A stretch of DNA of 64,000 nucleotides, taken from the IMG/VR virus record IMGVR_UViG_3300046514_000672, positions 1,654 through 65,653 of that record; one strand, 5' to 3'. Positions 18,132 to 42,232 of this stretch are shown piece after piece (the stretch's first letter is position 1; every line of letters starts with the position of its first letter). The stretch is from a virus. Lineage: Duplodnaviria; Caudoviricetes. Position numbers and translations under genes: made by a program. The notes under the pieces were generated by a model that did not search any database, was not told the origin of the DNA, and saw only the letters and a list, made by a program, of their open reading frames with translations.

Positions 18132-19460
18132 ATGTATACCCAAACAACCCTGGGACAGCTCTCAACACAGTTATTCCTACGCCTGAGCGCCCAGGGTTTT
18201 TGGACGATGGACGAGATACAGGGGTATGTAGTGGAGGCGTTACGGACATGGCAGGCGTTCTCCCAGTCGTATACGATCAAGGCCACAATTCCTACTACTC
18301 CCAACGTTTTCTTCTACGACTTATTCAAATTGATCCCTTCCCTCACTCCGACAATCACAGATCGGAATTTAATCGTTGATATCCAACGGTCCCTCCAGGA
18401 ACCTGTCTCCCCCATCTCATGGATAGGATCTGAACAATTCACCTTCCAACAGGTGATTAATGCTATTCAGAGATCTAGGAATAAGTTCCTCCTGGAGACT
18501 GGTATGGTTAACACGGTTGTGGAGATCCCAGGCCCAACTCCCTCCTCTGGCACTCTCGAACTTTCCCATAACACCATCGATGTTAGACATGCTATGTGGA
18601 AGGATCGGGAGGGGAACTATTCCCTCCTCTGGGAAACCGATCCCTACTCCCTCACCGCAGGAAATACTAAATGGTACAACACTCCCCAGGCAGTTCCCAC
18701 GGACTATTCAGTGTTCGTGCAGCAGCCATTGGTGCTTCAGCTCGCTCCGCCCCCTAATGATGTGGGTAGGGTGAATCTCATCACGGTAGAGTCTCTACCT
18801 GACCTGGACCCTGCTAATGTCGCTACTGTCCTAGGCATCCCTGATGATTATTGCTGGATCATTAAGTTCGGTGCCCTCGCTGACCTCTTCTATCAGGACG
18901 GCCCTGGACAGGACGAAGGCCGCGCACAATACTGTCAGTCCCGATATGAGGATGGAATTAAACTATCCCGAACATCGAATTTCATTCGTTTCGGGTATCA
19001 GACAGGCGTGCCCAGTTTCATAGACTCTATTTCCGAACTCGACACCACCAACCCTACCTGGATGAGCAAACTTCCAGGGACTCCTGACAGCATCGGCCTC
19101 GCGGGTAATATCGCCCTCACCACTCCTATCCCAGATGACAAACCCCATTCCATGTCCTTCGACATCACGCCGAATTTCCCTATCGGCGGGCCGTTGAATT
19201 ACGTCCAGGTAGGCAGGGAAGTACTCGATGTGATCGTTGATTACGCGCAACACCTTGCATATGTCAAGGAGGGGAGCTTTGAGCTAAAACAATCCCAGGG
19301 CCTCTACAAAAACCTCGTCATGCTCGCCGCCACACAGAACGACCGATTCCGCGCTGAGTCCATTAACTTCGACGTTCTCTCCGACCGGTCAGAACGAGAG
19401 AAGAAGGAAAATCCCAGGAGACGTTCAGATACACAGTTAAAGGAGCTGGATTATGAATAA
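18132..19460 (+). CDS. Second adaptor/tail-tube-like protein (two similar halves)
   Basis: FW-x-x-DEI-x-x-Y N-terminus; L-x-PPP and P-x-PD motifs. Confidence 0.55.
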   Translation: MYTQTTLGQLSTQLFLRLSAQGFWTMDEIQGYVVEALRTWQAFSQSYTIKATIPTTPNVFFYDLFKLIPSLTPTITDRNLIVDIQRSLQEPVSPISWIGSEQFTFQQVINAIQRSRNKFLLETGMVNTVVEIPGPTPSSGTLELSHNTIDVRHAMWKDREGNYSLLWETDPYSLTAGNTKWYNTPQAVPTDYSVFVQQPLVLQLAPPPNDVGRVNLITVESLPDLDPANVATVLGIPDDYCWIIKFGALADLFYQDGPGQDEGRAQYCQSRYEDGIKLSRTSNFIRFGYQTGVPSFIDSISELDTTNPTWMSKLPGTPDSIGLAGNIALTTPIPDDKPHSMSFDITPNFPIGGPLNYVQVGREVLDVIVDYAQHLAYVKEGSFELKQSQGLYKNLVMLAATQNDRFRAESINFDVLSDRSEREKKENPRRRSDTQLKELDYE

Positions 19461-21396
19461 ATTTCTACGTATCATGGCCATGTTAGTTATCACGTCCGGG
19501 GTAATGTCCGCCAAGCAAAAGCTCATGGGATACTGCGAAGCGGGGAACAATCCCGTTATCACCAACACCATTGTCTCCACTACAGTAGTGCAGAAATCCT
19601 TCCCGTCCTGTACGGTGACTGTATATATTACCGGTACTCTCACCCTAGCTTCTATCTTCGCTGACAACCTTGGCACCACCCTCTCCAACCCCTTCACGGC
19701 AAATAACGACGGTTCCTGGGGATTCTATGCCTCTAATGGAATCTATGATGTGAATTTCTCCAACGGTGGTATCCCCACCCCTTTCACTCTCGGCGGGAAT
19801 CTCATTAACGATCCATCTGTGTTCTACAATGACGTTACGTTATTTGGCGCTTTCTGTGACGGTATGACAGATGACGCACCCGCAATCAACGCGGCTCTGG
19901 CTAATGGTGGGACTGTGCTCCTTCCACAGAAACAAACCTGTAGACTGGCATCAACTATCACCATCCCTGCCGCATATACCGAACTCCAATGTAACGGATC
20001 TACTCTTCTCTACACCGGCACGGGAGATCTCTTAGATGTGTCTGCGTTTGGCAACACTCCTCCCTACGTCACAGGAAAGGTGGAGAAATGTCTTTTTGAC
20101 GCAACGGGTAATGCCAATGGCAACCTCATCGGTGTGCATCAGTTCTCGCGGTTAGGATTTGTGTATGAGGACGTGCGGTTCTCAAACTTCTCCACCACCA
20201 ACTCAGTAGGTATGGAGTGGGAGAATATCGCGCCGTCTGGTACTTCTCCAGGGTTTACCGAGCAATCTGCTATCAGAAAAGCAGATTTCTTCAATTGTAA
20301 CAAGGGCCTGAAATATATCAACACCGCTGGGTTTAATAGTTTCTTCTATAACTATATCACCGACGTACATTTCACCCTCCTCGACGGCCAGATCGGGCTC
20401 TCTATCGAAGGTAACGGCACCTCCAATAACCTCCTAGTCTTCGGCGGAACATATGACCTTCGCGTGAACATCTCCGCTAATGTCTCTGCACGTGGAGTAT
20501 CTGTAACAGGCGGAGCGGTAGTTGAGAGACAGAATTACTTCGGTGTGGGAGGGGAAAAGACATCTGGATCGGCAACAGATTACTCTCTATATGTAGATGC
20601 CGCTTCGTCAGTATATACCACCGGCCATGTATCCATTGATAACACAGGAGTGTTTTATGGCGGAGCTGAATCCTCCCTCGTTGTCCTACCACCCGTCAAC
20701 CCCACCACCGGTTCCGTTCATTTCGAAAACGGAGGTGGTATCTCCCCGCCCAGGCATTGTAAATATGACCTTGGCTATCCCTCCATCACCCCTAACGCCG
20801 CTAGTGATGCGAAGTTCTGGCTGGCGAACTTCGGCGGCACGGAGAATGATTGTAATTTTCAGATTCTAAAGCGTGCGACGGATAATACCAATCCCGATGT
20901 GGATATTCAAGGTACCGGCCCTGCGCCGGTTAATATCTTCTTCACTGACGCCCTCTCAGGTAACATCGGCATCGGTCCTGGATGGTCGGTGGCTTCCGCG
21001 CCAGTGTATAATCTCGATCTTGGAAAGGTTGGCACCACCTTCCGCACTCCTAATACTTTCATGTCAGGAACCTCCAAAGGCTTCCATCAACAATACGTCT
21101 CTCCCAATCCTGATGAGTCTTTTTCTGTCCTTATCGGTGCCGGTGCCTCCACAGCGACCTTTAACTTCACCACAGCTTGGAACTCTCTCCCCATGTGCAT
21201 CGCTACGCCCAACACAACCCTGGTGTCATACGGAGCTAACCCCATCATCGCAGGCTGGGCAATCGCTCCCTCTGTCTCCTCCGTCACCCTCAACCAGTGG
21301 GCTATGAACCTCACACCCGGTGGGTCCTACGGCACCTCAACCACCCTCACCTTCCCAGTGACATACTTCATCCATTGTAAAGGAAACCCCAACTAA
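19453..21396 (+). CDS. Tailspike-like beta-helix protein with a signal peptide
   Basis: MNKFLRIMAMLVITSGVMSA leader; NPFTA-x-x-DG anchor-like domain; FGA-x-x-DG-x-TDD-x-x-AINAAL pectin-lyase start. Confidence 0.7.
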   Translation: MNKFLRIMAMLVITSGVMSAKQKLMGYCEAGNNPVITNTIVSTTVVQKSFPSCTVTVYITGTLTLASIFADNLGTTLSNPFTANNDGSWGFYASNGIYDVNFSNGGIPTPFTLGGNLINDPSVFYNDVTLFGAFCDGMTDDAPAINAALANGGTVLLPQKQTCRLASTITIPAAYTELQCNGSTLLYTGTGDLLDVSAFGNTPPYVTGKVEKCLFDATGNANGNLIGVHQFSRLGFVYEDVRFSNFSTTNSVGMEWENIAPSGTSPGFTEQSAIRKADFFNCNKGLKYINTAGFNSFFYNYITDVHFTLLDGQIGLSIEGNGTSNNLLVFGGTYDLRVNISANVSARGVSVTGGAVVERQNYFGVGGEKTSGSATDYSLYVDAASSVYTTGHVSIDNTGVFYGGAESSLVVLPPVNPTTGSVHFENGGGISPPRHCKYDLGYPSITPNAASDAKFWLANFGGTENDCNFQILKRATDNTNPDVDIQGTGPAPVNIFFTDALSGNIGIGPGWSVASAPVYNLDLGKVGTTFRTPNTFMSGTSKGFHQQYVSPNPDESFSVLIGAGASTATFNFTTAWNSLPMCIATPNTTLVSYGANPIIAGWAIAPSVSSVTLNQWAMNLTPGGSYGTSTTLTFPVTYFIHCKGNPN

Positions 21397-21397
21397 T

Positions 21398-24300
21398 ATG
21401 TCTCTGCAATCCGATCTCTCCGCTCTGTTAGGACCTAACAAATCTATCGGCCAAGAATTCAGGCGCGTCTCGAAACGTGCGATATCTTTAGGAGTTGAGC
21501 TTAACTCTCCTGTGGATCTCGTGCCACCTGGGAAGTATCCTCTTTTACAAAATGTTAGATCTTATCAGGGGGGAAGGATCGAGGCACGACAGGGATTGGT
21601 GAGAGTAGCGCAGGCTCCTATCGCAGACACTAACGTTCACTCCATCGCTAGAATGAATGATTATGTATTTCAGAACTTCGTGAGGTTCCTTGGTGCGGGG
21701 ACAAATCTCTACTCAGGGGTGAACAGCTTTACCCAGATCGATACTGGATACTCGGGCGACCCCCTTTCCGTCGTCCCCTATCGTCCTGATCAGTCCCCTA
21801 GGGTCTGGGCATATATCGCCAACGCCAATAAAATGCGTAAGGTAGATACGGACAACACCGTATATAACGTAGGTATTGCTCCTCCTATTGATATCCCCTC
21901 TGCCGAACTTGCCCCGCCTAATTACCTACCTGCGAATGTGTTTGATCTAGGGGCCGGGAACTGGGGAGCAACGGGTGCGACAAATCCAGTGTTGGGAAAT
22001 AGATTAACAGGTGTTACCATTGGCACCATTCTCTATATCAATGGCGTATCTGGCTGGGCACTAATCGCCCCTTCTGGAGGTTTCTCTGACGCTATTTCCA
22101 CAGGAATGAGATTGATCATCAACGGAGGAGCTGGAAATCAGGAGTCTGCTACTGTCGAGGACACAAAGAAGGTATTCGTCCCCAACGCCTCACCTGCATT
22201 AACCGTAACGGGGATTATCTACGACAACCCTATAGCCGCCACTGGTCTTGCAACCATTACCCTTAGTCAACAATTAAATGGCATTGAGAGGAACTCTCTT
22301 ATTCAAATTGAAAGTGAATGGGTGAGGGTGATATCTGTCACTCCTGCTCCAACTGGTATCTACAACGCCAGTTTTCGTGTCTCTACTACCATCTCACATG
22401 GTGTGGGATCGGGGATCACTCTTCCACCCCAAGGCAACATCTATATCTACCTTGCCAACACTCACGTTGCCGGTGAGCCACTAACCGCCACCATGCAGAC
22501 ATCTACCATCGCAGGTGGGTCCACAGGAGCCACTGGGAGCTTCTACACCAATGCCGCAGCGGCGTTCCCGTATAATTTTGGTGCTATCGGTGGTGTGCCG
22601 ATCCAACCTGATGATTTTATCCATGTTGGTGTATATGTGGACCATCCAGAGTGGTTAGTGGAGGGGAAATTAGTATTAGATATCGATCCTAATACCACGG
22701 TCACACATACTGCGTTAGATGGCAACCAGAATGCCTATTGGAAATCATTTCGTCCTAATGACCTCCAGCCAATTATTCTCTCTGCTGAGACCACTGATTC
22801 TGCAAGGACCGCCGCTATTCAACTCCAGGTACAGAATGAATCTGACGTGGCGTTTGCGACTAACCTAGAGGGAGGTATCGCGCCGGAACTACAATCTGGA
22901 TCATCCCAACAGGTATTGGGACAACAGGTGTGGACGGATTTTATCTGGAAAGTGTCTGACCTGTTCAGGGTGGGTAGTAATCAATTCGTGGATCTCTCCA
23001 CGCTTCGTGCGATACAGTTCCGTATCACTGTCGCCGCAGGACAGACAATTAATGTCTCAGTGCATAACTTATGGGTGGGCGGTGGATATGGACCGGATAA
23101 CTGGCCTAACCACTCTCCATTTATCTATCGGGTGAGATATAGATCCTCCGCCACCGGCGCTAAGTCTCTTCCCGGCCCAGCAATGAGAACTGGGATTGAT
23201 TCCCGGCGTCAGGCGATCACCGTTACCTGCGCCCAGTCCCTTGATCCTCAGGTAGACAAAATTGACATTGAGAGGTTGGGCGGAACGAATCCAGACTGGC
23301 ATTATATCGCCACTATCGCCAATTCCTCCACGCCTACATATATCGACGCCCAAGCCAGTGGGGCTATTATCACCAATCCTCCATTGGATATCGATGTGTC
23401 TCAGCCGTTTGCCATTTCAGACTTGCCCAAAACCTCTACCGTTACTGTCTCAGGTACAGCGGTGTTTCGCACCGCAGGGAGTGTTTTTAACACCGCCTGG
23501 GAGAAAGGGACGGAGGTGATCGTCAATGGCATTTCCACTACCCTCTATGCATCCCCTTACTCCACTGCCCTTCTTCACGTTGCTGACACCATCCCATCAG
23601 GCACTGGATTAATCCTGGAGATCAACGAACCCATTCTTGCTGGTCAGCCTCTCCCGGTTATGTGGGGACCGTTCTATGAGTGCCTGTTTGGTGTAGGGAA
23701 TCCCCTCGACGCAGGGAGTGTATATTTCACTAACCCTACTAATCCAGATGGTGCGTCGGTGAAGAATCGTATAGAGGTAACCTCTCCATCAGAGAAAATG
23801 CAAAACGGCTGTCTCTATGACGGCAGGAGTTATGCATTTTCAGACCAGAGATTCTTCCAAGTAACCCCCTCTAGTTCCGCTACGGTTAAGTTCGACTTCA
23901 CAGAGATCCCCAATGGTAAGGGACTGTTCGCCAAATGGGCATTCTCAGTAGGTAAGAAGATCCACTTCCTAGCATCAGATGGGATATATGAGACCACCGG
24001 CGGGGAACCGATTTGTATCTCTGACGATATCCGGCCACTATTCCCACAGGGCGATTCCCCTGGATTTGCAGTTAATAGTATAAATCCTATAGACATGACT
24101 ATGACAGATAACCTACGTCTGGCGGAGCACCAAGGATATGTATATTTTGATTATATAGACACTAGTGGATTTTTAAAAACACTTGTTTATGTCGAAGACG
24201 ACAAAGCATGGTATCCAGATAGTTATTTTTCTGGAGACATACTAAAGGGTGTCCTTAGTCATTATTCTGAAACAGGAGAATTTAAAGGAGTAGAATATAG

Positions 24301-25339
24301 AACTCTACTTATTGGAGGAAACAACAATCTTCTTTTCACTCCAGGCGGAACTTTTGATGATAACGAAGAGATTCTATGTACCGCCGCTACCCCCGCAGAG
24401 AATTTAGACGACCCTAGGGCCAAAAAACAATTTGGAGATTTGGCATTTGATTTAGATCCTGATAATACAGACATCACAGTGATGCCAAGAATTAGCAATC
24501 TTTCTACCTCTCTACCGTCTGTAGTTTATAATTATGCCGGTCGCGGAATTTCCGCTCCGCTTGATTTATCCTCTGGTGCGGGAGTGTTCGCTAGGAATAT
24601 AGGAGTGATATTTAGTTGGTCTACTAGAACGGGTAATCCTAAGATCTACGGCTACGACATTTCGTATCTCCTTCGCCCAGAAGACACAGCGATGAGAGCA
24701 ACGGACTGGTCGGATGATGGATATCCAGGGGACAAATTCTTCCAGGGATTTTTGCTCACATGTGACACTAAAGGACTAGACAAGGTGATTAAGATCCAAG
24801 GGGATCAGGGGGACGTAGAGACGTTTACCATTAATCATAATGGTATTGAGACAAAACCGTATGTGTTCACCCCGCCGAAGATCTTCTCCTTGGTAAGGAT
24901 AATTTCTACTGATACAGTACTCTGGGATTATTACAAGACCAAATGGGTATGGGAGCCGTCGCCGAACTTAGTGACCTTGTATCAAACCCAAGGCACTACC
25001 CATGACATCCCTGGGTATCAATTCCTAAAAGACGGCTACATCGCGCATATGTCTACGGCAGATGTCATCCTTACCATTAACGTGGACGGGACGCTGTTCA
25101 GTTACAAAATCCCAGCCTCAGGCGGTGTGTATGTTAAGAACTACCTAGTGTTCGCCATCAATCCCTCCACCGGGCAGGCGCTGAAGGGCAAGTTATTTGC
25201 ATACGGTGTGTCCTCAACCGCACCTTTCCGCCTCTTTGAGAAAGACTGCGAGGTACGGGTCCATTCCTGGATCGGCGGGGATTACGTGGTAAAGCAGCCA
25301 TTTGGGGATATCCACAGGTTGGCCGGGGCTAGAATATAG
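21398..25339 (+). CDS. Tail nozzle/stabilization-like protein (1313 aa)
   Basis: L-x-NVR N-terminus; FLASDGIY and ISDDI propeller motifs; large beta-rich insert. Confidence 0.6.
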   Translation: MSLQSDLSALLGPNKSIGQEFRRVSKRAISLGVELNSPVDLVPPGKYPLLQNVRSYQGGRIEARQGLVRVAQAPIADTNVHSIARMNDYVFQNFVRFLGAGTNLYSGVNSFTQIDTGYSGDPLSVVPYRPDQSPRVWAYIANANKMRKVDTDNTVYNVGIAPPIDIPSAELAPPNYLPANVFDLGAGNWGATGATNPVLGNRLTGVTIGTILYINGVSGWALIAPSGGFSDAISTGMRLIINGGAGNQESATVEDTKKVFVPNASPALTVTGIIYDNPIAATGLATITLSQQLNGIERNSLIQIESEWVRVISVTPAPTGIYNASFRVSTTISHGVGSGITLPPQGNIYIYLANTHVAGEPLTATMQTSTIAGGSTGATGSFYTNAAAAFPYNFGAIGGVPIQPDDFIHVGVYVDHPEWLVEGKLVLDIDPNTTVTHTALDGNQNAYWKSFRPNDLQPIILSAETTDSARTAAIQLQVQNESDVAFATNLEGGIAPELQSGSSQQVLGQQVWTDFIWKVSDLFRVGSNQFVDLSTLRAIQFRITVAAGQTINVSVHNLWVGGGYGPDNWPNHSPFIYRVRYRSSATGAKSLPGPAMRTGIDSRRQAITVTCAQSLDPQVDKIDIERLGGTNPDWHYIATIANSSTPTYIDAQASGAIITNPPLDIDVSQPFAISDLPKTSTVTVSGTAVFRTAGSVFNTAWEKGTEVIVNGISTTLYASPYSTALLHVADTIPSGTGLILEINEPILAGQPLPVMWGPFYECLFGVGNPLDAGSVYFTNPTNPDGASVKNRIEVTSPSEKMQNGCLYDGRSYAFSDQRFFQVTPSSSATVKFDFTEIPNGKGLFAKWAFSVGKKIHFLASDGIYETTGGEPICISDDIRPLFPQGDSPGFAVNSINPIDMTMTDNLRLAEHQGYVYFDYIDTSGFLKTLVYVEDDKAWYPDSYFSGDILKGVLSHYSETGEFKGVEYRTLLIGGNNNLLFTPGGTFDDNEEILCTAATPAENLDDPRAKKQFGDLAFDLDPDNTDITVMPRISNLSTSLPSVVYNYAGRGISAPLDLSSGAGVFARNIGVIFSWSTRTGNPKIYGYDISYLLRPEDTAMRATDWSDDGYPGDKFFQGFLLTCDTKGLDKVIKIQGDQGDVETFTINHNGIETKPYVFTPPKIFSLVRIISTDTVLWDYYKTKWVWEPSPNLVTLYQTQGTTHDIPGYQFLKDGYIAHMSTADVILTINVDGTLFSYKIPASGGVYVKNYLVFAINPSTGQALKGKLFAYGVSSTAPFRLFEKDCEVRVHSWIGGDYVVKQPFGDIHRLAGARI

Positions 25340-25367
25340 TTGATAGAATAGAGTTATAGGAGATCAA

Positions 25368-25724
25368 ATGGCGATTAACAGACCAAGGCGATCATATTAC
25401 GGGGTGCAAATAACCTTGACAAGTGCGGATACTAACTATGAGATTTACACTCTGGTTGAGGCAATTGTCACCGTGGCCACTAACCCTTCCGACGCGCCGG
25501 GTGCGTGTAGGGAGTTTAACATCCAGTCCGATCCTGGGAATGACGGGAGTAATCCGATACTGGTTGGGGATTCTGAACTATCTGCAACACGATATGGATA
25601 TTCTCTCTCTGCTGGGGATTCCAGAGTGTACCGGAGTGATATCAATAACGTTCAGGTAGCTGGGAAATATGTACGGTCCCATGCGTCTGGGCAGAAGTTG
25701 AATGTGGAGATCGATCTGGGATAA
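25368..25724 (+). CDS. Small beta-sandwich virion protein
   Basis: AGGAG RBS; I-Q ... N ... I-x-VG ... G-x-x-L-x-x-G pattern. Confidence 0.5.
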   Translation: MAINRPRRSYYGVQITLTSADTNYEIYTLVEAIVTVATNPSDAPGACREFNIQSDPGNDGSNPILVGDSELSATRYGYSLSAGDSRVYRSDINNVQVAGKYVRSHASGQKLNVEIDLG

Positions 25725-25725
25725 T

Positions 25726-26349: not shown

Positions 26350-26358
26350 GGAGAAGAT

Positions 26359-28908
26359 ATGAAATTACTCTCAAAGATACTCATCCTTTGCTCCTTGGGA
26401 GTAATGTCATATGGGAGGGGATTACTCTCAGGGAATTGTGAACAGGGAGGATGGAGAGTTCAAACACAAGGAATGCAATCCTCGACCCTCGTTCAGCGTA
26501 GTTTCCCTGCATGTACGGTGACGGTATATGTGGTAGGGTCTGGAACCCCTGCTACTATTTATTCCTCCAGCTCCGGTTCGCCCCATCTCAACCCATTCAC
26601 TGCCGGTCCTGATGGGAGTTATCTCTTCTACGCAGATGATAATAATTATGAGATTCATTTCTCAGGTGCGAATATCATCACAGCATTTATTCGCTACGGC
26701 ACGGTATCCTCCGGTAGCGGAAGCCTTGCCAACGTCTCCACCACACCCACTGCTAATTTCATTCCCCAGGCATATAATACAGCTCTAATAGATATTGGAT
26801 GGCTACCTAGAACCGGCACTGGATCTAAGGTCCTCACCGCTACCGGCACCCTCACCCCTGACACAGGCGCGTGTTTTGATTCTAATAACAACGCTGTGTC
26901 CTGCCCTAATGGATTGTTTGACGCCACGGTTCTCTACGTCTCTGCCACCGGTAATGACGCTAACCCTGGCACATCCTGGGCGTTTCCTAAACGCACCGTG
27001 GCCGCAGCGGTCAATGCTCTCCCTCTCTCAGTAGGCGGCGTGGCATCACACACAGGCACGGTGAACATCGGTCCTGGAACATTCGTGGAAACCGCCACGC
27101 CTATCGAGTTCAACGCCGACATCCACCTTGTTTGTGCGGCGTCTGGAGACAACGGCGAAGGGGTGAATAACGCTACGGTGATTCAGTTAGGCTCTGGCCG
27201 TAACACCTCCCTCTTCTCATACACCTCTGCATACTCTATGGCAAACGGCTACGCACATTTTCTCCAGGCAGACCATTGTATGTTTGATGGGAATAAAGGG
27301 AGTAATTCTTCAGCTCCTGCGCTCATCAAGATCTGGAACGGTGGATATCAAAATAGCTTTCATGAGGTAGGGTTCCAGAACGCACATGGCGTGGCGTTGC
27401 AGATCGATAACCAAGCGGTGAACTTCTCATGCTTTGTATGCACCTTCGCAGGAAATGATGGAGGTGCGTTTTATCTCAATGACCTCGTAGGCGCTAACGT
27501 CGTCTCCTTCTATGACACACAGATCGATAACTCAGGGGTGAATCCTATCCTCATCACCCAGGCACTGACCGACACCGGTGGATCAAATATCGCCACGTTT
27601 ATCAATACTAAATTCGAAGCCACAACCGGCGTCGTCAACCACGCGCACGTCATCGACTTTACTCCTCCTTCCTCCAGCGGCAATCCATTCTCCATTAATA
27701 TCATGGGACTCACGGCAGAGAACACGATTGGTTCCGGCACCTTCGCCATCTTCCAAGAGAACCAAGGGGGGTACGGAGCGAATTGGAATATTCAAGGAGT
27801 GAATGTTGGTGGGTATACTGGGGCGTTTAAGAATAATAAGAACGGTGCGATTAGTAATAACGGGGAAATTAAACACCTCATCGATTCCGACACAGCCAAT
27901 CTCTATGAGTCCTCTCCTGATATTCAGGTATCGGGCGGCGCGGGGATTTATTCCGGTCTCGGTACGCCTGTTGGTAATGTCGCGGCATGCATAGGATCGG
28001 TGTATATGCGCTTGAATGGCGGCGTGAGTACTACCCTCTATGTCAAACAATCGGGAATATGTACGGACAACACTGGCTGGGCACCGGCAGGAGGCGGAGG
28101 TGGCGGATCTGTTGACGCTACGATTATTCAAGAGGCAACATTAGTGGCCGTTGCTTCTGGATCTGGCACGGCCTATGCAGGCAACGCCACTACTTGTATC
28201 TCTAGCTATCTGGCTGGACAGGTATTTCTATGGAAACCGGATACCACTAATACTTCCACCACTCCTTCGTTAAATATCTGTACTCAGGGGCCGAAGACAA
28301 TTGTTCATAGGTCAGATAGTTCAGCCTTGGCAAATAATGAATTAGATACCGGCCAATACTGCACATCTCTCTATGACGGCACCAATATGCTCACGTCTGG
28401 GTGTTTCATGGGTCCTGGAACCACTACCTATACCTATAACAACTCCCTCGCCACACCTGCCAGTGGGCATGGGAACTTGGGATTCTACGGTACCGGGAAG
28501 GTTATCCAAGGTGTGTCTGATGACGGAACTAATAGCTATTCTGTACAGGATAATACCTGCACCGGACAGGTCGTGCAAAAGATTGTCGCAGGCTCTATTA
28601 CTTGTGGATCGGTAGGTTTAGAAATTGCAACAGGATCAAAAGCTCTTGCCACTGGTGCCATTTCTTCTGGAACCTGTACCTCGGCCCAAACCGCTACGGC
28701 CACCGGCACATTAACTACTGATACTATCCTAGCGGCTTTCAACGCTGACCCTACTGGAACTACCGGATATCTCCCCTCCACATCAGGTGGACTTTATATT
28801 ATTGCCTATCCCACTGCCGACACGGTTAACTTTAAAGTTTGTAATAATACAATTGGAAGTATAACCCCTGGTGCCGCTATCACTATTAATTGGAGAACAA
28901 TACGATGA
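26359..28908 (+). CDS. Second tailspike-like beta-helix protein with a signal peptide
   Basis: MKLLSKILILCSLGVMSYG leader; N-domain shared with 19453; YVSATGND-x-N-x-G ... P-x-x-TV-x-x-AV beta-helix start; G-x-G-x-P-x-G-x-V-x-A-x-x-GS-x-Y tail module. Confidence 0.7.
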   Translation: MKLLSKILILCSLGVMSYGRGLLSGNCEQGGWRVQTQGMQSSTLVQRSFPACTVTVYVVGSGTPATIYSSSSGSPHLNPFTAGPDGSYLFYADDNNYEIHFSGANIITAFIRYGTVSSGSGSLANVSTTPTANFIPQAYNTALIDIGWLPRTGTGSKVLTATGTLTPDTGACFDSNNNAVSCPNGLFDATVLYVSATGNDANPGTSWAFPKRTVAAAVNALPLSVGGVASHTGTVNIGPGTFVETATPIEFNADIHLVCAASGDNGEGVNNATVIQLGSGRNTSLFSYTSAYSMANGYAHFLQADHCMFDGNKGSNSSAPALIKIWNGGYQNSFHEVGFQNAHGVALQIDNQAVNFSCFVCTFAGNDGGAFYLNDLVGANVVSFYDTQIDNSGVNPILITQALTDTGGSNIATFINTKFEATTGVVNHAHVIDFTPPSSSGNPFSINIMGLTAENTIGSGTFAIFQENQGGYGANWNIQGVNVGGYTGAFKNNKNGAISNNGEIKHLIDSDTANLYESSPDIQVSGGAGIYSGLGTPVGNVAACIGSVYMRLNGGVSTTLYVKQSGICTDNTGWAPAGGGGGGSVDATIIQEATLVAVASGSGTAYAGNATTCISSYLAGQVFLWKPDTTNTSTTPSLNICTQGPKTIVHRSDSSALANNELDTGQYCTSLYDGTNMLTSGCFMGPGTTTYTYNNSLATPASGHGNLGFYGTGKVIQGVSDDGTNSYSVQDNTCTGQVVQKIVAGSITCGSVGLEIATGSKALATGAISSGTCTSAQTATATGTLTTDTILAAFNADPTGTTGYLPSTSGGLYIIAYPTADTVNFKVCNNTIGSITPGAAITINWRTIR

Positions 28909-29636
28909 AAAAACTAATTCTATTATTCCTATTAGCCATACAAGGAATCTTTGCGACATGTACCACGCCTTGTAAGGATACCCAGTTCTTTGCCACCAAT
29001 GGGGCTACAGGAACTACGCCTGCTATGAACAACACAGGTGCGACGGCACTTATTGTCCTTGGCAGTTGCTTTAGCCAAGACTGCTCAGGCATAACCATCA
29101 CCAGTTCTCCTGGTAACACTTTCACATGTTTAACGTCATTGTCTGGAGCAACAAGTTCTGCAATTTTATGTTATGCACTTACTCCGATAGTGAGTAGTTC
29201 TCAAACAGTATCTTACAGCGGCTGCTCTGTTGGGTGTGGAGTGTTTGCAATGTCCTTAACCGGAACAGGAGCATTGGATGGCAGTCCTGGGTTTGTTTCT
29301 CATCTCGATTCCGGCGGCACCGTTAGCAGTTTTCAGCCTGGATCTATTTCCACGTCACAATCCAACAGCGTAGTCATATCTGGTATGGGAGGATATTGTA
29401 CTAGTTCTTTTGGTATCATTAGCATCGATTCAAGCTATACCATTGGTGTTAGTCAATGTCTGGCCACCGCGATGGACGGAGGCATTGCCTACAAGGTGAT
29501 TTCTGCCGCTGGAGCAACTAATCCTACATGGAGTATAACCAGCGCCAACTGGCAAAACGCAGCAGGATATAACATTGCATTTTTAGCCGCTGCCACTAGT
29601 ACTGCATCCCAACCTAATATATTAGGGATTTTATAA
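28905..29636 (+). CDS. Signal-peptide, Cys-rich beta protein
   Basis: MKKLILLFLLAIQGIFA leader; 10 Cys. Confidence 0.65.
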   Translation: MKKLILLFLLAIQGIFATCTTPCKDTQFFATNGATGTTPAMNNTGATALIVLGSCFSQDCSGITITSSPGNTFTCLTSLSGATSSAILCYALTPIVSSSQTVSYSGCSVGCGVFAMSLTGTGALDGSPGFVSHLDSGGTVSSFQPGSISTSQSNSVVISGMGGYCTSSFGIISIDSSYTIGVSQCLATAMDGGIAYKVISAAGATNPTWSITSANWQNAAGYNIAFLAAATSTASQPNILGIL

Positions 29637-32600
29637 TGAAGAATTTATTTCTTTTATTCTTTCTGTGCCTTGGTAATTTATTCTCCCAAGTAACCGTTTC
29701 GTTCTCTTATCCCATGAACGGTGCGACAATTGGTGGAGGCGGGATACAACTTTCCGGACCGGTTGCCTCTTCCGCAGCCGCGATTACTAGTGTAACCATT
29801 TCCATTAATGGAGGAGCCTTTGGAGGATTTGCTACATTATTCGGTTCTCCTCCTAATACATGGCTAATGTCATTACAGGGTTCGGCCATGACAGCCGGGG
29901 CTACTACGTTACAACTTAAAGCCACCGATGCCATGTCAAATACCGGTTTGTCATCTATTATTAACGTCACGGTTATCCATAGCAATCCTCAATGTTCCCA
30001 CACCACCGCTCCTGGAAGTTCATCTATCTTCTGCGAAAAGGCGGTGACAAATATTAGCACATCCACCAATACCGCAAGATCGGTTACGCTTACCGGTGGG
30101 CTAACCGCAGGACAATTAATATTCTGCCAAGCCGAGGCATCTGTCCCAGCTTCACCGGCCACACAATTAACCAGTAGCGTTACCGCTGGAGCTACGCTTA
30201 TTCACGTAGTTAGTTCTGCTGGATTCCCGGCTACTCCATTTTTCGCCACGTTGAGTCCTATTGGTGGCCTAGGCACAGGTACACCTCAAGTTCCTACCCC
30301 CGAAGATACAGTAACCGTTACTAACGTGTCTGGATTGAACTGGACGGTTACGGCAGTTCCCCAAAACCACGCTAGCGGAGAAATCGTAGGTAACTGGAGT
30401 GTGGTGCAAGGACAAAGTAATTATCCCTGGAAATCCACATATTTAACCGATAGCTTAGGCATTCCCTTCACGTTCTATAACGAAGTAGGAACTCGGGCAA
30501 CTGATAACGATGTAGAGCAGATGGGAACCTATTATGCCTTCGTCCCTGCCTCAACAGGATCTAATGAGGTAATTACCAGCCAGAATCCCAACGGTTCCGG
30601 ACAGGTAAATCTTCTTCAGTGCGCGCTTTTCTCTGGAGTCAATTCTGTCGGTAATGGTGCGTACCTTATGGGCTGGGCAGGCCAGAACGATGGATCAACC
30701 GTTTTACCTGGGCCAGCTTATGTAAACCCATTTATTGTGACTCCTGGAGATCTAATCGTTACGTCTGTTTTTGCGGCTCCTATTGTGCCTCTTGGTACTG
30801 CCCAACTAGCAATTGAAGATACTTCTAAGCCCTACGGCCAAATCAATTACTTTGTCGCCACTTCCAGTCCAGTACAACCTGAGACATCTGCTAATGTGGA
30901 TGGATTTTTTGAAGTATCTATAGCCTTCCATCCAACTGGATTTAGTAGTGGAGGCGTGCAGGCATTTATCACAGAACCATACATTAGTCCTAGGCCGGGT
31001 GAGAAAACATCTCAATTGGCGTTAGTAGCCGCGCAGGTAACAACCAGCACTGGGACTATTACTAATGTAGATGTGTCATTTGATAACGGGCCGTATAATG
31101 CTACTTTTGGTCCTATGGCATTGGAAGGCGGGTCCAGTTGGAATGCACAACTAGACGCCAGGATAGTGTCCGCAGGTTCCCACACATTACAGGTCCGTGC
31201 GACGGATTCCTTTGGTAATATAGGATACTCCTCTCCCGCGACACCGATTATTATTGAACATATTCCATTTGTGTGTGCCCACACACAGGTTGGTCCCCCA
31301 GGAACAGGGTATTTCTGTGAACAATATGCAGCGGCTGATGGAGTTAATCCACAAGCTATTACCTTTCCAGCAGTGGCCGGGGTGGGATTACGTGCAGGGC
31401 AGACGATTATCCTACAGACATCGATGGGCAACGCGCAGGTATTCCAGACCACTAATAACGGCGCGATTGATAACGTACAGACATCATTTCTCCTCAATGG
31501 CGCATGTTCTAGCTTCCCGGCCACACCATTTGACGTGAAAGTAAATGAACACGCAGGATATGGTGCATATGGCCGTGTGGAGAAAATGACAGTTCATGCC
31601 TGCACAGGGTCTACTGCTTCTAGTGTTACCAGAGGCGTGCCTGGGAATGATTGTGTGATTCCTAGTGGGGAACTGAGTGCATGTTCCATCGCCATTGCAC
31701 ATGATAATGGGGCCTGGGTGAATCGCTGGGGAGCACAGACACCGGACACAACCAATATCACCTCCACTCATGGATTCACATGGACGGCGGTTAAGCGAGT
31801 ATCATCTGGGCCATTTGCTGACCTAGACGACGCCAATGGTGCTATATGGTATACGGTAGTGCCGTCAAACATCTCTACAGATGAGGTGATTACATTTACT
31901 GATGCCATTTCTAATTTCTCTATCGTATTGGGTGTGGTATACACAGGACTAGGCGCATTGGAACCTGGGGCGGTATACACCACTAATCTGGGCGGGTTTG
32001 GTTCTGGATCTGCCAGCACCGGTCCATATTTCTCCCAACCAGGAGATATAAATATCGCCCTAATTGGCGGAGCACCAGAGAGTGTCATCCCATCGAATCC
32101 AATTACTAACGTGCGTGCAGGAGATACTGTTAGACCATATTCAATCTTTGCTGATCAATACTCTGTGTCGTCTATCGCTAATATCGGAACTTATATGGGA
32201 TCTGAGGGTGCGTCAGTGATAGGTATGGCATTTCAACCAGCGGCCCCCTCTACATTTGGTAGATCGATTGTGCTTAGTTCTCAAACGGCATTTAACAATT
32301 CCATCCCTGGTATTCCCTCTAATGGTGTTTGTACAATGGAAATTTCCATGCATGATTGGGGGAATCAGGTTGTCTCTGAACATCCAATACAGAATAATAT
32401 TTGTGATATCAATACATATTGGTTTGCTGTATCAGGCGGCAATCCTCAGATGTTATTAACTCCTCTACACAATACAGGTGCAGGTGACTGTCAAGTGAAC
32501 TTCACTGGACATAATCTAGTAACCATTCGTTGGCAAAGGATACCGGCCACGGGCAGTACTGGAACAATCATCTGCCAAGCTACGGACGAAACAGGGAATA

Positions 32601-35600
32601 CCTTTGTTAATATGTCTACCAATTATACGGGGATAACTGGACCAGTTACGACAAATGGATTTACCGTTGGCGGAACGACTACTCCTATCTCATATGCTTA
32701 TGCGAGAGTGTATGGTACTAATTTCTCGGCTACCGCCACTCCCCCTACCACAGCACAAGATCAAACAGGAGCAGTGTTTCAATGGAAATTCGACCTAGGG
32801 AATAATGTAGGAAGTTTAAATGATTCCACCGCCGGGAATACTCATCCAGCCACACTCTCATCGGGTTCCCCAACCTATGTTAATACGGCCTATCAGAATC
32901 TAATCAAGGCCCTACCTAGAACCCTCAACGCACCTGCGTATACAAAATGGTTGCCGTTTAAGGTGAACGCTACCAACACCCTCGATGGGTCCACTTCATA
33001 TACTCAGGCTAACGCCTCCCCAAATGTCTCTGTTACCTCATGGACTAATGTTAGCGGTCCAGTTACTCCTATCATTGTCTCTCCGTCTGCATTAGTTACT
33101 AATGTTACTGGATTAACCCAACGAGGTGGATATACATATAATCTCCATGTGGTTGACACCTCCTCCAATAGTGCTGACGCACAATTGTTGGTAGGGGCTG
33201 TGGATTATGATGCCAATGGAGTGTTGGTACAGACGGCAGATGAGAAAAAGATCTATGGAGATCAGATAGTATGGGGGAAAAATCCCTGGGGATATGCTGA
33301 TGAGAGGAACTGCACTGCGGTTAATCTCCAGATTAATGGAACAAATTGTAATGGAGATCAAATCCAAGCGTCGGGGAATGCATATTTTTCTACCACTACT
33401 TGGCTAACTCCAGCAACAGGAACGGTAAGTTATCCATTTGCCGGGTATGGTCCGTCTCCAGGGCAAGCGTGTTTGGCGGGAGGGGTAACCAAGGCAACAT
33501 TAAATGGGTCGATTACATCTTCGGCTACGTCCATCTTGATCCATCATTCAGAATGCCTAGACCTAACCTCCTTTCCGACGTGGATTTTAATTGGCAATAC
33601 TATAGGAAACATAAGTGGAGTTCCACAACAAGAGCAGGTATGTATTTCTTCTTCTGGCGGAGTGTTCACCGGGGATGCTACACTAGCTGTCTGTTACGAC
33701 GGTCGTGGAATGGCTGGAGCAAATCTATTAAATGCCCAGCCTTTAGGATCTGCTCAGATGTGGGCGGACACTACAATAGTGGGGCAATTCAAGATCACCG
33801 GTAGTGGGACTAAATTCTATTCCGATCCTGCCAGACCCATATGCCCCGCTGGAGTTCCTGGGCCTCCTGGACCAGTAGCTTATTACATAGGTCAAGCGGC
33901 ATTTACTGCTGGTTCCTCCACCGCAACCTTATCAGGATTTGGAGCGGCATGGACAACTCTTAACGGAGTGGTAGCAGGTGGATACATCCGCGCCAATGCC
34001 ACTCATGCATCCGGTACACCATTTGCTTTCTGGGCAAAGATTGTTTCCGTCACAGACCCAACTCATTTAGTCATGGATAGACCTGCACCTACTGGGATTG
34101 ATGCAGGGCCTTTTAACTATGCCATTACCGCGACACAATTCCTCTCCCTCGACTGGATACAGAACAGCCACGCATATCGGTCACTTTGGCAGGGAAGTGG
34201 ATGTGCGTCTGAAACGGCAGCGTTCGGAGTGCCGTCACATGATGTTACAAGTTTAGACTCTACTGTTCAGTCTGGGGTTAATATCAGCTACAAGAATGCC
34301 CTAGGTGCGATTAGTTCTCAAGGTCCTAATTTCTATGCTACCGGTCGTGCGGAAAGACAACTTGAACATAGAAGTGGATACACACCGGCGCTAACCGCCG
34401 CGAATCAGATTGATGATAATTATGTCAGAGATCCTGAGGTATCTGGGATTGGTGGAGGGAGTCCATTATTAAATGGTGGAGGGATTATTGGAAGCATCAT
34501 AGATAAAATATTTAACGGCTCTACGCCATTGGATTGGTTAGATGTTACGCCATTTGCCTCACAAGGAGTGGCGGAGGCGGCGAAGAATTGCAACACTGCT
34601 GATCCCAGAGATCAGGGATATCCACAAGGATGGTTGGGATTAGTGGCGCTGAAGGACCCAAATTTTACGCGCCAAATGACATGGACCACCGGCCTACAAG
34701 CCTGGGCAACTAGGGACCAAACGTGTAGGAGAAATGCAACTGATGGATATGCAGGGGTTCAGGTGAATTCCTGGGCGGGCTCTAGTATAGGTGGTATACC
34801 CGGAGCGCCATTAACCCTCACCAACGGCAGTAAACTTGCTTCCCCAACCACGGGGACATTCTCTCCGGGAATCTGTGCAGGGGTGGATGACGGAACTGGA
34901 ACTATTCATGTTATTGTCGGGTCCACAATCGCAACAGTGGTCACGGGGAATGTCGCGGCAGGTGGGTTTAGAATAACCATCACCGACACCTCAGTGTCTC
35001 CGCCATTAGTGGTAACAAGGGAATACTCAGGCTCGGGCGGCATGGGAAGTACCATTACTCTCGCTGGGGCCTGGACGGGCCTCACCACTGGAGATTATAC
35101 GTTTATGGTTGAGGATGGAAGTCTACAGGGATATATGACTTCTATTGGTAACTCTAACCTAGACTGGCCGGATGTTTCTGTGGCTACTGGATTAATTAAT
35201 AATCGCACCCTTCAACATTTTTACGCATGTCAGTACAACTCCCCTACCCAGATCACACTTAATCGCTCCTGGGACCAACTAGCAGGAACTACCACTAATA
35301 ACTATATGGTTAGTTATGTGGTAAGTGGGTTTGAGGTGCAGCCGTTTATGTTGGGGGGAATTAAAGCATCTGGCACTAGATGGGCAGGACAGAACTCCGA
35401 CCCTACAGTTTCTTCTGCTTATTCCATTATGAACGGGCAATTAGGGACCTGGATTGCGAACTTCGGTTCTGATCTTAACTCTCCAGGGACTTTAGGAATA
35501 TATTATAACCGGGTTAGTGGAGACTGTGAAGTGCCGGGAGTTCCTAACCCCTCTCCCACATTTGATAGTATTCATGGAACCTCCCTCACCCAACCTTCAT

Positions 35601-36007
35601 GTGGATTTATGGGCCTTACCACAACAACCGGAGGACAATATACCGCTAGAGTAAATACCGCAGAAGCCATCACCGGATACGAAGCATATTACGACGCACA
35701 GTGTGCGTTAGGAATATCTCAATGCAATACAGCAAGAGCATTCGTCGATAAGTATTACGGCGCAGTCTATGGCGATTGTTCGATGACACAGGGAGGAGGA
35801 AGTACCTTTTACTGTGACGCGCATTTTGTCAATACCCAGAATGAGTTATCTAATGCCTTCCTAGGCGGGATCAAATGGACCGGGTTCTTCTTCGGCATGG
35901 GAAATTCCGCGAGGTGGCCAGCACATAGATTAAATGCGGGAATACCTACATCCCCTAAGGTACAGTTCTTCGGCGGAGTGTATGATTTAGGTGGGGTACA
36001 TAACTAA
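29636..36007 (+). CDS. Giant (2123 aa) multi-domain adhesin/receptor-binding-like protein with a signal peptide
   Basis: MKNLFLLFFLCLGNLFS|Q leader; two Ig-like repeats (L-x-x-x-ATD-x-x-x-N-x-G-x-S); PKD-like TLDGS ... W ... GP ... G-x-Y-x-Y-x-L-x-V-x-D domain. Confidence 0.7.
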   Translation: MKNLFLLFFLCLGNLFSQVTVSFSYPMNGATIGGGGIQLSGPVASSAAAITSVTISINGGAFGGFATLFGSPPNTWLMSLQGSAMTAGATTLQLKATDAMSNTGLSSIINVTVIHSNPQCSHTTAPGSSSIFCEKAVTNISTSTNTARSVTLTGGLTAGQLIFCQAEASVPASPATQLTSSVTAGATLIHVVSSAGFPATPFFATLSPIGGLGTGTPQVPTPEDTVTVTNVSGLNWTVTAVPQNHASGEIVGNWSVVQGQSNYPWKSTYLTDSLGIPFTFYNEVGTRATDNDVEQMGTYYAFVPASTGSNEVITSQNPNGSGQVNLLQCALFSGVNSVGNGAYLMGWAGQNDGSTVLPGPAYVNPFIVTPGDLIVTSVFAAPIVPLGTAQLAIEDTSKPYGQINYFVATSSPVQPETSANVDGFFEVSIAFHPTGFSSGGVQAFITEPYISPRPGEKTSQLALVAAQVTTSTGTITNVDVSFDNGPYNATFGPMALEGGSSWNAQLDARIVSAGSHTLQVRATDSFGNIGYSSPATPIIIEHIPFVCAHTQVGPPGTGYFCEQYAAADGVNPQAITFPAVAGVGLRAGQTIILQTSMGNAQVFQTTNNGAIDNVQTSFLLNGACSSFPATPFDVKVNEHAGYGAYGRVEKMTVHACTGSTASSVTRGVPGNDCVIPSGELSACSIAIAHDNGAWVNRWGAQTPDTTNITSTHGFTWTAVKRVSSGPFADLDDANGAIWYTVVPSNISTDEVITFTDAISNFSIVLGVVYTGLGALEPGAVYTTNLGGFGSGSASTGPYFSQPGDINIALIGGAPESVIPSNPITNVRAGDTVRPYSIFADQYSVSSIANIGTYMGSEGASVIGMAFQPAAPSTFGRSIVLSSQTAFNNSIPGIPSNGVCTMEISMHDWGNQVVSEHPIQNNICDINTYWFAVSGGNPQMLLTPLHNTGAGDCQVNFTGHNLVTIRWQRIPATGSTGTIICQATDETGNTFVNMSTNYTGITGPVTTNGFTVGGTTTPISYAYARVYGTNFSATATPPTTAQDQTGAVFQWKFDLGNNVGSLNDSTAGNTHPATLSSGSPTYVNTAYQNLIKALPRTLNAPAYTKWLPFKVNATNTLDGSTSYTQANASPNVSVTSWTNVSGPVTPIIVSPSALVTNVTGLTQRGGYTYNLHVVDTSSNSADAQLLVGAVDYDANGVLVQTADEKKIYGDQIVWGKNPWGYADERNCTAVNLQINGTNCNGDQIQASGNAYFSTTTWLTPATGTVSYPFAGYGPSPGQACLAGGVTKATLNGSITSSATSILIHHSECLDLTSFPTWILIGNTIGNISGVPQQEQVCISSSGGVFTGDATLAVCYDGRGMAGANLLNAQPLGSAQMWADTTIVGQFKITGSGTKFYSDPARPICPAGVPGPPGPVAYYIGQAAFTAGSSTATLSGFGAAWTTLNGVVAGGYIRANATHASGTPFAFWAKIVSVTDPTHLVMDRPAPTGIDAGPFNYAITATQFLSLDWIQNSHAYRSLWQGSGCASETAAFGVPSHDVTSLDSTVQSGVNISYKNALGAISSQGPNFYATGRAERQLEHRSGYTPALTAANQIDDNYVRDPEVSGIGGGSPLLNGGGIIGSIIDKIFNGSTPLDWLDVTPFASQGVAEAAKNCNTADPRDQGYPQGWLGLVALKDPNFTRQMTWTTGLQAWATRDQTCRRNATDGYAGVQVNSWAGSSIGGIPGAPLTLTNGSKLASPTTGTFSPGICAGVDDGTGTIHVIVGSTIATVVTGNVAAGGFRITITDTSVSPPLVVTREYSGSGGMGSTITLAGAWTGLTTGDYTFMVEDGSLQGYMTSIGNSNLDWPDVSVATGLINNRTLQHFYACQYNSPTQITLNRSWDQLAGTTTNNYMVSYVVSGFEVQPFMLGGIKASGTRWAGQNSDPTVSSAYSIMNGQLGTWIANFGSDLNSPGTLGIYYNRVSGDCEVPGVPNPSPTFDSIHGTSLTQPSCGFMGLTTTTGGQYTARVNTAEAITGYEAYYDAQCALGISQCNTARAFVDKYYGAVYGDCSMTQGGGSTFYCDAHFVNTQNELSNAFLGGIKWTGFFFGMGNSARWPAHRLNAGIPTSPKVQFFGGVYDLGGVHN

Positions 36008-42011: not shown

Positions 42012-42232
42012 TGTCGAGCGTTCTCTGCCCTTTTTACATCTTTCCACGCCTCCTCCACCCCTTTCCAGAGGTGGAGTTCTCTTGCGTCTATGATTCCTGG
42101 GGTGTCTTGTGCTCGTAGCGCGATCCAAACGTTCCAGGCGGCTGCGAAGACGTTCTCAGGAGGAGGAGGGCTCTGGGCACGGCTGAGGGCCGGGAATAGG
42201 GTTCCTAGGGCCAGGAATGACCGTCGTTTCAT
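42008..42232 (-). CDS. Small protein with a twin-arginine (Tat)-like signal
   Basis: MKRRSFLALGTLFPALSRA|Q. Confidence 0.6.
   Translation of the reverse strand: MKRRSFLALGTLFPALSRAQSPPPPENVFAAAWNVWIALRAQDTPGIIDARELHLWKGVEEAWKDVKRAENARH

Follow-up and report, generated by a model that had tools for sequence, protein, structure and literature searches.

Sec-type leaders on cysteine-rich tail-module proteins of a podophage and a possible extracytoplasmic route of spike maturation

Results

The tail module and its leader-bearing genes

We analysed a 64,000-nucleotide stretch of viral DNA, called the window below, which comprises bases 1654-65653 of the 65,653-bp IMG/VR record IMGVR_UViG_3300046514_000672, and we concentrate on five cysteine-rich proteins of its tail module that appear to carry Sec-type signal peptides. 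The record has direct terminal repeats, and the window is the nearly whole genome of a soil podophage. The five genes start at 19453, 25726, 26359, 28905 and 29636, and we refer to them and their products by these positions. All five proteins begin with a basic n-region (M-K or N-K), continue with a hydrophobic core and reach a small-residue cleavage site, as an earlier note on this DNA had pointed out; both the open reading frames (ORFs) and the leader features are confirmed here. The best 10-residue Kyte-Doolittle mean of the five leaders is 2.5-2.95; it does not exceed 1.4 for the head, adaptor, putative nozzle and 25368 proteins, or 2.2 for any other listed gene. We used a leader heuristic that demands a basic n-region, an uncharged core that is 9 residues or longer and reaches a hydrophobicity of 2.0 or more over 8 residues, and small residues at positions -1 and -3. 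Of the 14 + strand ORFs of at least 200 aa between 14000 and 42000, it flags these five and no others, and the leader calls rest on this heuristic and on comparison rather than on a trained signal-peptide predictor. The capsid, portal, adaptor and 1313-aa proteins have no leaders.

A Shine-Dalgarno sequence precedes the leader-including starts, namely AGGAG for 19453 and 26359 and GGAG for 28905, as for the head gene, and at these starts the leader-bearing genes adjoin or overlap the genes before them. The earlier note had considered that the true starts might lie downstream of the hydrophobic segment; in the printed 18-base stretches upstream of the downstream in-frame starts, read by eye, neither AGGAG nor GGAG occurs. 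The small residues at -1 and -3 are found in 26359 as S-Y-G followed by R and in 19453 as M-S-A followed by K, where the Met at -3 is atypical. No twin-arginine (Tat) signature is seen, as none of the five leaders has RR within residues 1-12. The lipobox L-[AS]-[GA]-C is absent from 19453, 25726, 26359 and 29636, and 28905 has the non-canonical I-F-A-T-C. Nor does the conserved Cys of the spike family form a lipobox, as it comes after G-[YWF] and lies 7 residues beyond the small-residue site.

The first gene of the module (18132..19460, + strand, like all the genes of this module described here) encodes a leaderless adaptor of 442 aa with 2 Cys, which matches the Pfam family SU10_adaptor (PF24175) with E 7.1e-10 and 40.1 bits against a cut-off of 27. 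It thus shows a feature of SU10-type podophage tails, i.e. a SU10-family adaptor adjoining the portal and head module. Its stop overlaps by 8 bases the start of the first leader-bearing gene, spike 1 (19453..21396), which has AGGAG upstream and encodes 647 aa with 11 Cys and a predicted leader at residues 1-20 (19453-19512). A head-binding-like N-terminal domain (N-domain) follows at about residues 21-120, with Cys28 and Cys53, and then a pectate-lyase-like body; there is a weak match to the exopolysaccharide (EPS) depolymerase family phrog_4250 (E 0.0015). Next comes a leaderless protein of 1313 aa and 7 Cys (21398..25339), a putative nozzle by its size and position. It has no match in Pfam or PHROG, and viral contigs scanned with it gave no pattern match; in related loci an ORF of 983-1401 aa comes after the adaptor-like gene. 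The ORF list then gives a leaderless 118-aa protein with 1 Cys (25368..25724), at a position similar to that of a 124-aa gene annotated as 'tail fiber protein' in phage Tunturi_2.

The second leader-bearing gene (25726..26349) encodes 207 aa with 6 Cys, the leader being predicted at about residues 1-27. Spike 3 (26359..28908), again with AGGAG upstream, has 849 aa and 19 Cys; one Cys falls within the leader, which is predicted at residues 1-19 (26359-26415). It carries the same N-domain as 19453, with Cys27 and Cys52, and its C-terminal domain is formed by residues 745-849. Over 104 columns the N-domains of 19453 and 26359 share 45% identity, and in both proteins they stand directly behind the leader, which agrees with the earlier note that the leader directly precedes an anchor-like domain in two of the five. 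The C-terminal 105 residues of 25726 are 69% identical to the C-terminus of 26359, two Cys being aligned (26035-26346 and 28591-28905); from the sequences this common domain looks like a recently exchanged binding module.

The gene at 28905..29636, with GGAG upstream, encodes an all-beta protein of 243 aa and 10 Cys with a predicted leader at residues 1-17. Its predicted structure is a beta-sandwich with a mean predicted local distance difference test score (pLDDT) of 76, for which the PDB offered no convincing match (TM score 0.27 or less). The giant protein (29636..36007) has 2123 aa, 33 Cys (one in the leader) and a predicted leader at residues 1-17. Two Ig-like modules are found at its N-terminus, with weak matches to Big_13 and a K319L-like PKD domain below the Pfam cut-offs, and the PKD stretch is confirmed by a profile search against the PDB (E 6e-8). 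Its C-terminal core (~1250 aa, ~58% of the query) is common to leader-bearing proteins of 1183-2449 aa, in which the leader stands directly before the conserved 'GQSLVL' start and some of which have LamG, DUF2341 or chitobiase-type domains. Six Cys of the giant are invariant and two more nearly invariant in an alignment of 14 rows. An ESM Atlas search with its C-terminal 1264 aa gave only LamG-like leads of low score (0.77). A leaderless fibre-like protein of 475 aa with 1 Cys follows (36007..37434), with a weak match to the minor tail protein family phrog_4120 (E 0.002). The five leader-bearing proteins have only weak or sub-threshold matches in Pfam, PHROGs and NCBIfam, and the sequences of 19453 and 26359 found nothing meaningful in the PDB.

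The total numbers of Cys in 19453, 25726, 26359, 28905 and 29636 are 11, 6, 19, 10 and 33. For the mature parts we counted 11, 6, 18, 10 and 32, in accordance with the earlier estimate of about 11, 6, 18 and 10 with dozens in the giant. The other structural genes of the window encode 0-7 Cys; the contrast drawn earlier, with one Cys each in the major capsid protein (MCP) and the 36007 fibre, none in the three ejection proteins and seven in the 1313-aa protein, is likewise correct.

Conservation of the leaders

A survey of homologues, which the earlier note had suggested, found the leaders to be conserved. They are present in 6/8 homologues of the 19453 N-domain, 12/14 homologues of the giant (in two of the 12 once the called ORF is extended a little upstream) and 4/6 homologues of 28905. 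As for the remaining two homologues of 19453, one starts two residues before the first Cys and the other lacks the leader and both Cys. Comparing the leaders with the first 40 mature residues, we found identical residues in 6/18 vs 34/40, 5/18 vs 21/40, 7/18 vs 15/40, 13/20 vs 36/40 and 4/17 vs 29/40 positions. Hence sequence conservation begins exactly at the predicted cleavage site, and the leaders are conserved in kind, not in sequence.

For a wider survey, a profile of the N-domain without the leader was searched against 1.84 billion cluster representatives. It matched 4852 of them at E <= 0.001 and 2232 at E <= 1e-10, and the best 150 of the 4852 were read. In these the N-domain mostly begins at residue 20-30; 149 match the N-domain motif, and a hydrophobic leader precedes the domain in 135/149. 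Position 8 before the first conserved Cys (Cys1) is A, G, T or S in 128 of the 139 leader-bearing relatives, and position 10 is A, L, V, G, S or I in 124 of the 139. The alignment thus has an A-x-A-type (-3,-1) motif at a fixed distance, 7 residues before the conserved Cys. We also looked at the start of the leaderless relatives, which coincides with the predicted +1 position, and Met stands at +1 in 11/139 leader-bearing forms (P0033-P0179). This Met would fit a gain of the leader by N-terminal extension or its loss by truncation, and could also allow a second, cytoplasmic isoform.

Covariation of cysteines with the leader

The 149 relatives fall into four classes: 131 have the leader and both Cys, 4 have the leader without Cys1, 5 are leaderless with both Cys, and 9 are leaderless without Cys1. 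Four of the five leaderless members with both Cys begin inside what appears to be the end of a leader. Cys1 is thus present in 131/135 leader-bearing forms and absent in 9/14 leaderless ones (Fisher p = 1.6e-8, kinship uncontrolled), and it occurs without the second Cys (Cys2) in 0/136. A Cys1 that tracks the leader and never occurs without Cys2 is as expected of a disulfide formed only in the exported forms. An independent set of 22 IMG/VR contigs (16-74 kb, of which 19 measure 57-74 kb) behaves alike: the leader and Cys1 occur together in 17, and both are missing from each of the remaining 5 (3 distinct sequences), four of the 22 loci having failed the motif pattern and been scored by eye.

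The bodies of the leader-bearing spikes contain an even number of Cys in 87/117 cases (p = 1.3e-7). Among ORFs of at least 300 aa in the window, Tunturi_2 and the 22 contigs, the median Cys content is 1.69% for leader-positive and 0.64% for leader-negative ORFs (n = 20 vs 134, p = 5e-9); some true leaders escape the heuristic, and the negatives include spurious ORFs.

One related locus (L029, 9920-13593) encodes a leader-bearing N-domain spike of 531 aa with 10 Cys, and directly behind it a leaderless paralogue of 692 aa with 3 Cys and no Cys in the N-domain. Leader-bearing and leaderless forms thus do occur in one genome.

Identity of the N-terminal domain

The earlier note had described the domain behind the leader as a tailspike-type, anchor-like domain. 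Using tblastn, we found that the N-domains match the N-termini of enterobacterial-phage proteins annotated as tailspike, tail fibre or head-binding-domain proteins. In E. coli phage ep3 the N-domain stands at the very N-terminus of a leaderless tail protein that has neither Cys and is encoded just after annotated tail-protein genes. Our AlphaFold2 model of the 19453 N-domain (pLDDT 80) shows a helix at residues 2-15 and then a beta-sandwich. Foldseek found nothing for this model at E <= 0.001, the best match (E 0.013) being to a chain from the tail complex of the cyanopodophage Pan3. The top match of VIA-align is the Pam1 tail machine (7eeq_A; Z 7.4, root-mean-square deviation (rmsd) 3.9 A, 80 aligned residues), and the top 24 also include the P22 tailspike head-binding domain (2vnl_A; Z 6.4, 3.0 A, 79 aligned), the Sf6 gp8:gp14N complex (7sg7_A; Z 6.3, 5.3 A, 88 aligned), Pan3 (Z 6.2, 3.9 A, 75 aligned) and two P22 tail complexes (Z 6.1 and 5.5). 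A feature search in the ESM Atlas placed 19453 near 'Tail spike protein' clusters with Head_binding and the pectate-lyase-like PF12708 (0.92), which we take as a lead only. The spike gene stands directly after the adaptor-like gene in the window and in several related contigs. A binding prediction with the adaptor alignment and three mature N-domain copies scored 0.00, and nothing is drawn from this score. Our data give moderate support, from sequence matches and the structure model with its middling Z scores, to the N-domain being a tailspike head-binding-like domain.

Related phages, loci and controls

With the MCP as query, the only matching phage records are the Tunturiibacter phages Tunturi_1 and Tunturi_2 (32% identity over 99%), which are thus the nearest cultured relatives by sequence. 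Both are podophages isolated on an Acidobacteriota host, according to their description (PMC11924767). Two contigs of metagenome-assembled genomes (MAGs) with the spike N-domain are titled Candidatus Sulfotelmatobacter and Bryobacterales. On the strength of the Tunturi host and these Acidobacteriota contigs, the host of the window phage is probably an acidobacterium.

Tunturi_1 and Tunturi_2 share the spike N-domain with the window phage, in an alignment that covers the leader, and they likewise have five tail genes with leaders and many Cys. In Tunturi_2 these are gp12, 13, 14, 16 and 17, with classic leaders ending in A-x-A-Q and with 20, 10, 21, 2 and 34 Cys. The gene order is different: the leader block comes after the head genes, at a distance from the adaptor-like and the large structural genes. 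No large leaderless fibre gene is found in Tunturi_2 outside this block, so the leader-bearing proteins would be its only evident receptor-binding candidates.

Some further features of these loci are recorded here. In Tunturi_2 (L002, 9802-22744 and 23916-24335) the leader block lies three genes upstream of the annotated endolysin (gp17, gp18-20, gp21). At another locus (L031, 9911-19861) the leader-bearing ORFs are followed by small membrane-like ORFs. Tunturi_2 gp79 (L034, 28010-29209, - strand), which lies among early genes and is annotated 'tail protein', starts with the lipobox-like MNTKILLLSLLLTGC and continues with a Pro-rich stretch; by its sequence it looks like a lipoprotein, not a tail part.

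We considered whether the trait is imposed by the host. Tunturi_3 is likewise a podophage and infects the same strain as its host. Judged by eye on printed values of hydrophobicity and n-region charge, none of the 24 coding sequences read from its structural module has a leader, and each of its tail fibre proteins contains 0-7 Cys. On the evidence of these leaderless tail proteins we reject the idea of a trait imposed by the host and take it to be lineage-specific. An ordinary bacterial secreted family borrowed by the phage is also unsupported, as a strict pattern scan of one genome per species found 2 loci with the N-domain and a profile search matched 3 of the 401 genomes in the phylum of one Acidobacteriota MAG.

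Discussion

Our analysis indicates that the leaders are real and conserved, that they have a cleavage motif and that they covary with the N-domain Cys. As to what the genes are for, we consider the matter about evenly balanced between the reading that all five encode tail spikes, fibres and accessory receptor-binding proteins with cleavable Sec-type signal peptides and all the others. The same even chance is given to the sequence of events in which these proteins are exported by Sec, cleaved, furnished with disulfides outside the cytoplasm and then docked onto particles at lysis. This is essentially what the earlier note had proposed, and its parts fare differently: the comparison of relatives supports the export of the leader-bearing proteins well, the covariation of the Cys is suggestive of periplasmic oxidation, and attachment to the virion at lysis and its timing we infer only.

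The proposed course would be as follows. Late in infection the proteins, translated from the upstream ATG, would be threaded unfolded through the host Sec translocon, and signal peptidase I would remove the leader, in the spike family by a cut 7 residues before the conserved Cys. Folding, trimerisation and disulfide formation would take place in the oxidising periplasm, one disulfide stapling the first strand of the head-binding-like N-domain. Meanwhile the leaderless capsid, portal, adaptor and putative nozzle would assemble in the cytoplasm. Since this structural core is leaderless, attachment would have to wait for a breach of the inner membrane or for release; the two pools would meet only then, i.e. 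at lysis or later, and the spikes would dock via the N-domain. Before release, the exported spikes may in addition act on envelope polysaccharide of the producing cell, which would be compatible with export followed by docking.

In the textbook view, the whole assembly of tailed phages is confined to the reducing cytoplasm. In P22 the spikes are the last part to attach, and heads that lack them can be furnished with spikes in vitro; for this reason late docking seems plausible. The P22 gp9 and Sf6 gp14 spikes resemble the window family in their small N-terminal beta-sandwich, their beta-helix-like body and the position of their genes beside those for the adaptor and hub or nozzle. They differ in that they have no signal peptide and fold in the cytoplasm, whereas the window family adds a leader and a Cys pair. 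The pIII protein of the filamentous Ff phages is a receptor-binding protein with a Sec signal peptide and with disulfides formed outside the cytoplasm, and to our knowledge it is the only well-known exported phage adsorption protein. Ff phages, however, are extruded through the envelope without lysis and keep pIII anchored in the membrane until it is incorporated, while the window phage is a tailed, DNA-packaged podophage built in the cytoplasm. For P22, the legend of a preprint says of the tailspike 'no signal peptide present' and that it needs no export (bioRxiv 10.64898/2026.09.13.751334). Full-text literature searches, most matches being judged by title and the start of the abstract, returned no description of signal peptides on the tail spikes or fibres of tailed phages.

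Several observations weigh against export followed by docking. Export, cleavage and disulfides are all deduced from the heuristic and from comparative evidence. The mature N-terminus of the spike family is basic, with Arg at +1 in 72/139 and Arg or Lys at +3 in 95/139 relatives, and a basic mature N-terminus hinders Sec translocation in E. coli; the giant, 25726 and the Tunturi_2 leader proteins have mature starts of Q, T or A, in line with the neutral or acidic start expected. A tree of 168 N-domains gives only 2 independent leader-vs-Cys1 pairs on supported branches, too few for showing repeated joint changes of the two. The earlier remark that the Cys often form local pairs does not hold, their placement being no more paired than random (p 0.2-0.9 for the five proteins). 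Leaderless relatives have a median body Cys density of 1.54%, similar to the 1.47% of leader-bearing ones (n = 10 vs 117, p = 0.99), and this weakens Cys richness of the whole protein as a mark of export. With regard to the N-domain, its fold matches all have Z below 8 and are mixed with generic Ig-like and pilin domains of similar Z, the Pfam family Head_binding (PF09008) is unmatched, and no Pfam family matches 19453 or 26359 at E <= 0.01. In addition, the leaderless 36007 fibre of the window phage might be enough for infection, so that the leader-bearing proteins could be accessory or non-virion proteins. Export and periplasmic trimerisation of a 2123-aa protein would be demanding. Literature searches show no tailed phage with completion of the tail after lysis in vivo. 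The main text of the Tunturi paper, supplements aside, contains neither 'mass spectrometry' nor 'signal peptide' (0 occurrences each; PMC11924767).

The strongest competing explanation is that the proteins are exported and never become part of the virion, being free or cell-surface enzymes or binders made from tail-spike modules, with infection proceeding via the leaderless fibre. They might trim or mask host exopolysaccharide or receptors, ease release, prevent re-adsorption to debris or exclude other phages. The alternative named in the earlier note, a host-surface display or exclusion system built from tail parts, belongs here. We judge this explanation to be unlikely, and these roles with it. 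The whole evidence for export applies to it equally, and the 36007 fibre of the window phage could serve it. It is also in keeping with the gene neighbourhoods, as the leader block of Tunturi_2 is near the endolysin and apart from the adaptor-like genes and small membrane-like ORFs follow at L031, and with two further small leader-bearing proteins outside the tail module of the window. A precedent for such a use is WceF of Pantoea stewartii, a bacterial enzyme with a trimeric beta-helix, a tailspike fold and a cleavable signal peptide, which acts on exopolysaccharide; unlike the window proteins, it is encoded by a chromosomal exopolysaccharide-cluster gene, exported folded by Tat and not part of a phage tail module (PMC7949094). 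On the other hand, the leader precedes a domain of annotated virion spikes with a head-binding-like fold, for which a free enzyme has no evident use, and the spike gene comes directly after the adaptor-like gene at the window and several related loci. Tunturi_2 forms plaques and has no large leaderless fibre gene outside the leader block, and five genes of ~12 kb, or ~1/5 of the genome, would be a large investment for accessory functions.

Two other explanations question the fate of the leader itself. The N-termini might stay uncleaved, either as signal anchors keeping the proteins at the inner membrane up to depolarisation or lysis, in the manner of signal-anchor-release (SAR) domains, or as a part kept in the mature protein. 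Basic residues on both sides of the hydrophobic core in the spike family, together with the N-terminal helix 2-15 of the model, would suit such an anchor, and tethering would hold large spikes where the particles emerge. We nevertheless find this very improbable: the small-residue (-3,-1) motif at a fixed distance is not needed by an anchor, conservation starts exactly at the predicted cleavage site, and the leaderless relatives, like the Met at +1 in some leader-bearing forms, mark the same position. SAR domains are typically rich in Gly, Ala and Ser, and the leaders here are rich in Leu, Ile and Phe. SAR endolysins are Sec-exported before lysis and in some cases, e.g. P1 Lyz, have regulatory disulfides, as stated in PMC3556154; their SAR domains anchor small enzymes, are weakly hydrophobic and are not cleaved, while the window leaders are strongly hydrophobic, have a cleavage motif and stand on large structural proteins. 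The least probable explanation, to which we give hardly any weight, is that the leaders are not used for export at all, being start-codon artefacts or inert extensions of spikes that assemble in the cytoplasm, with their Cys oxidised after release or never. Leaderless spike-family relatives do exist, some of them equally Cys-rich, a few database entries start downstream of the leader, and the basic mature N-terminus could be read in the same way. However, the Shine-Dalgarno sequences and the junctions with upstream neighbours both favour the leader-including starts, Cys1 tracks the leader, and the properties of the leader are kept across thousands of diverged sequences while its sequence drifts.

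Returning to Sec export followed by docking, we hold with slightly less than even confidence that a large clade of soil podophages, probably of Acidobacteriota, splits virion assembly across the inner membrane, the leaderless relatives without the Cys being an ancestral or a reverted cytoplasmic form. Our data suggest that the spikes and fibres mature outside the cytoplasm before they join the particle, a route undescribed for tailed phages, and docking after export, if confirmed, would be a new assembly route. The infectivity of such phages would then depend on the Sec, signal peptidase and disulfide machinery of the host and on the mixing of compartments at lysis. They could use oxidised, Cys-rich adhesin or glycanase domains of extracellular type that are unable to fold in the cytoplasm. 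Receptor-binding proteins of soil phages would need a different annotation (mature N-termini) and different expression (periplasmic or in oxidising hosts). The trait is no single oddity, as the N-domain family is very large in metagenomes, and it can be tested at the bench, being present in the two cultured phages Tunturi_1 and Tunturi_2.

Other features of the window

The large terminase (6242-8602, +, 786 aa) and the portal (9419) were identified using PHROGs and Pfam, and the MCP lies at 14486. The PHROG matches of the terminase cover residues 115-250 in the N-terminal and 635-709 in the C-terminal part, and the ~380 unmatched residues between them may be an insertion. Among the 39 window proteins scanned with Pfam (E <= 0.01), no disulfide oxidoreductase or signal peptidase family was found, and no lysis cassette was identified in the window.

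The replication genes are on the opposite strand. They include a 1060-aa protein (42229-45411, -) with a uracil-DNA-glycosylase-superfamily domain and a family A DNA polymerase domain in one chain, and a separate 379-aa ORF (51279-52418, -) matches PolA weakly, over a short stretch and below the Pfam cut-off. Two small proteins with classic leaders are encoded among these genes. One has 124 aa and 2 Cys (47356-47730, -) and starts with MKKLLLLPLLSVVIFAQ; the other (46445-46927, -) starts at an internal MKKLILLSMLALGIPSLPA within a 215-aa ORF. By their sequences, both may be exported exclusion or surface-modifying factors.

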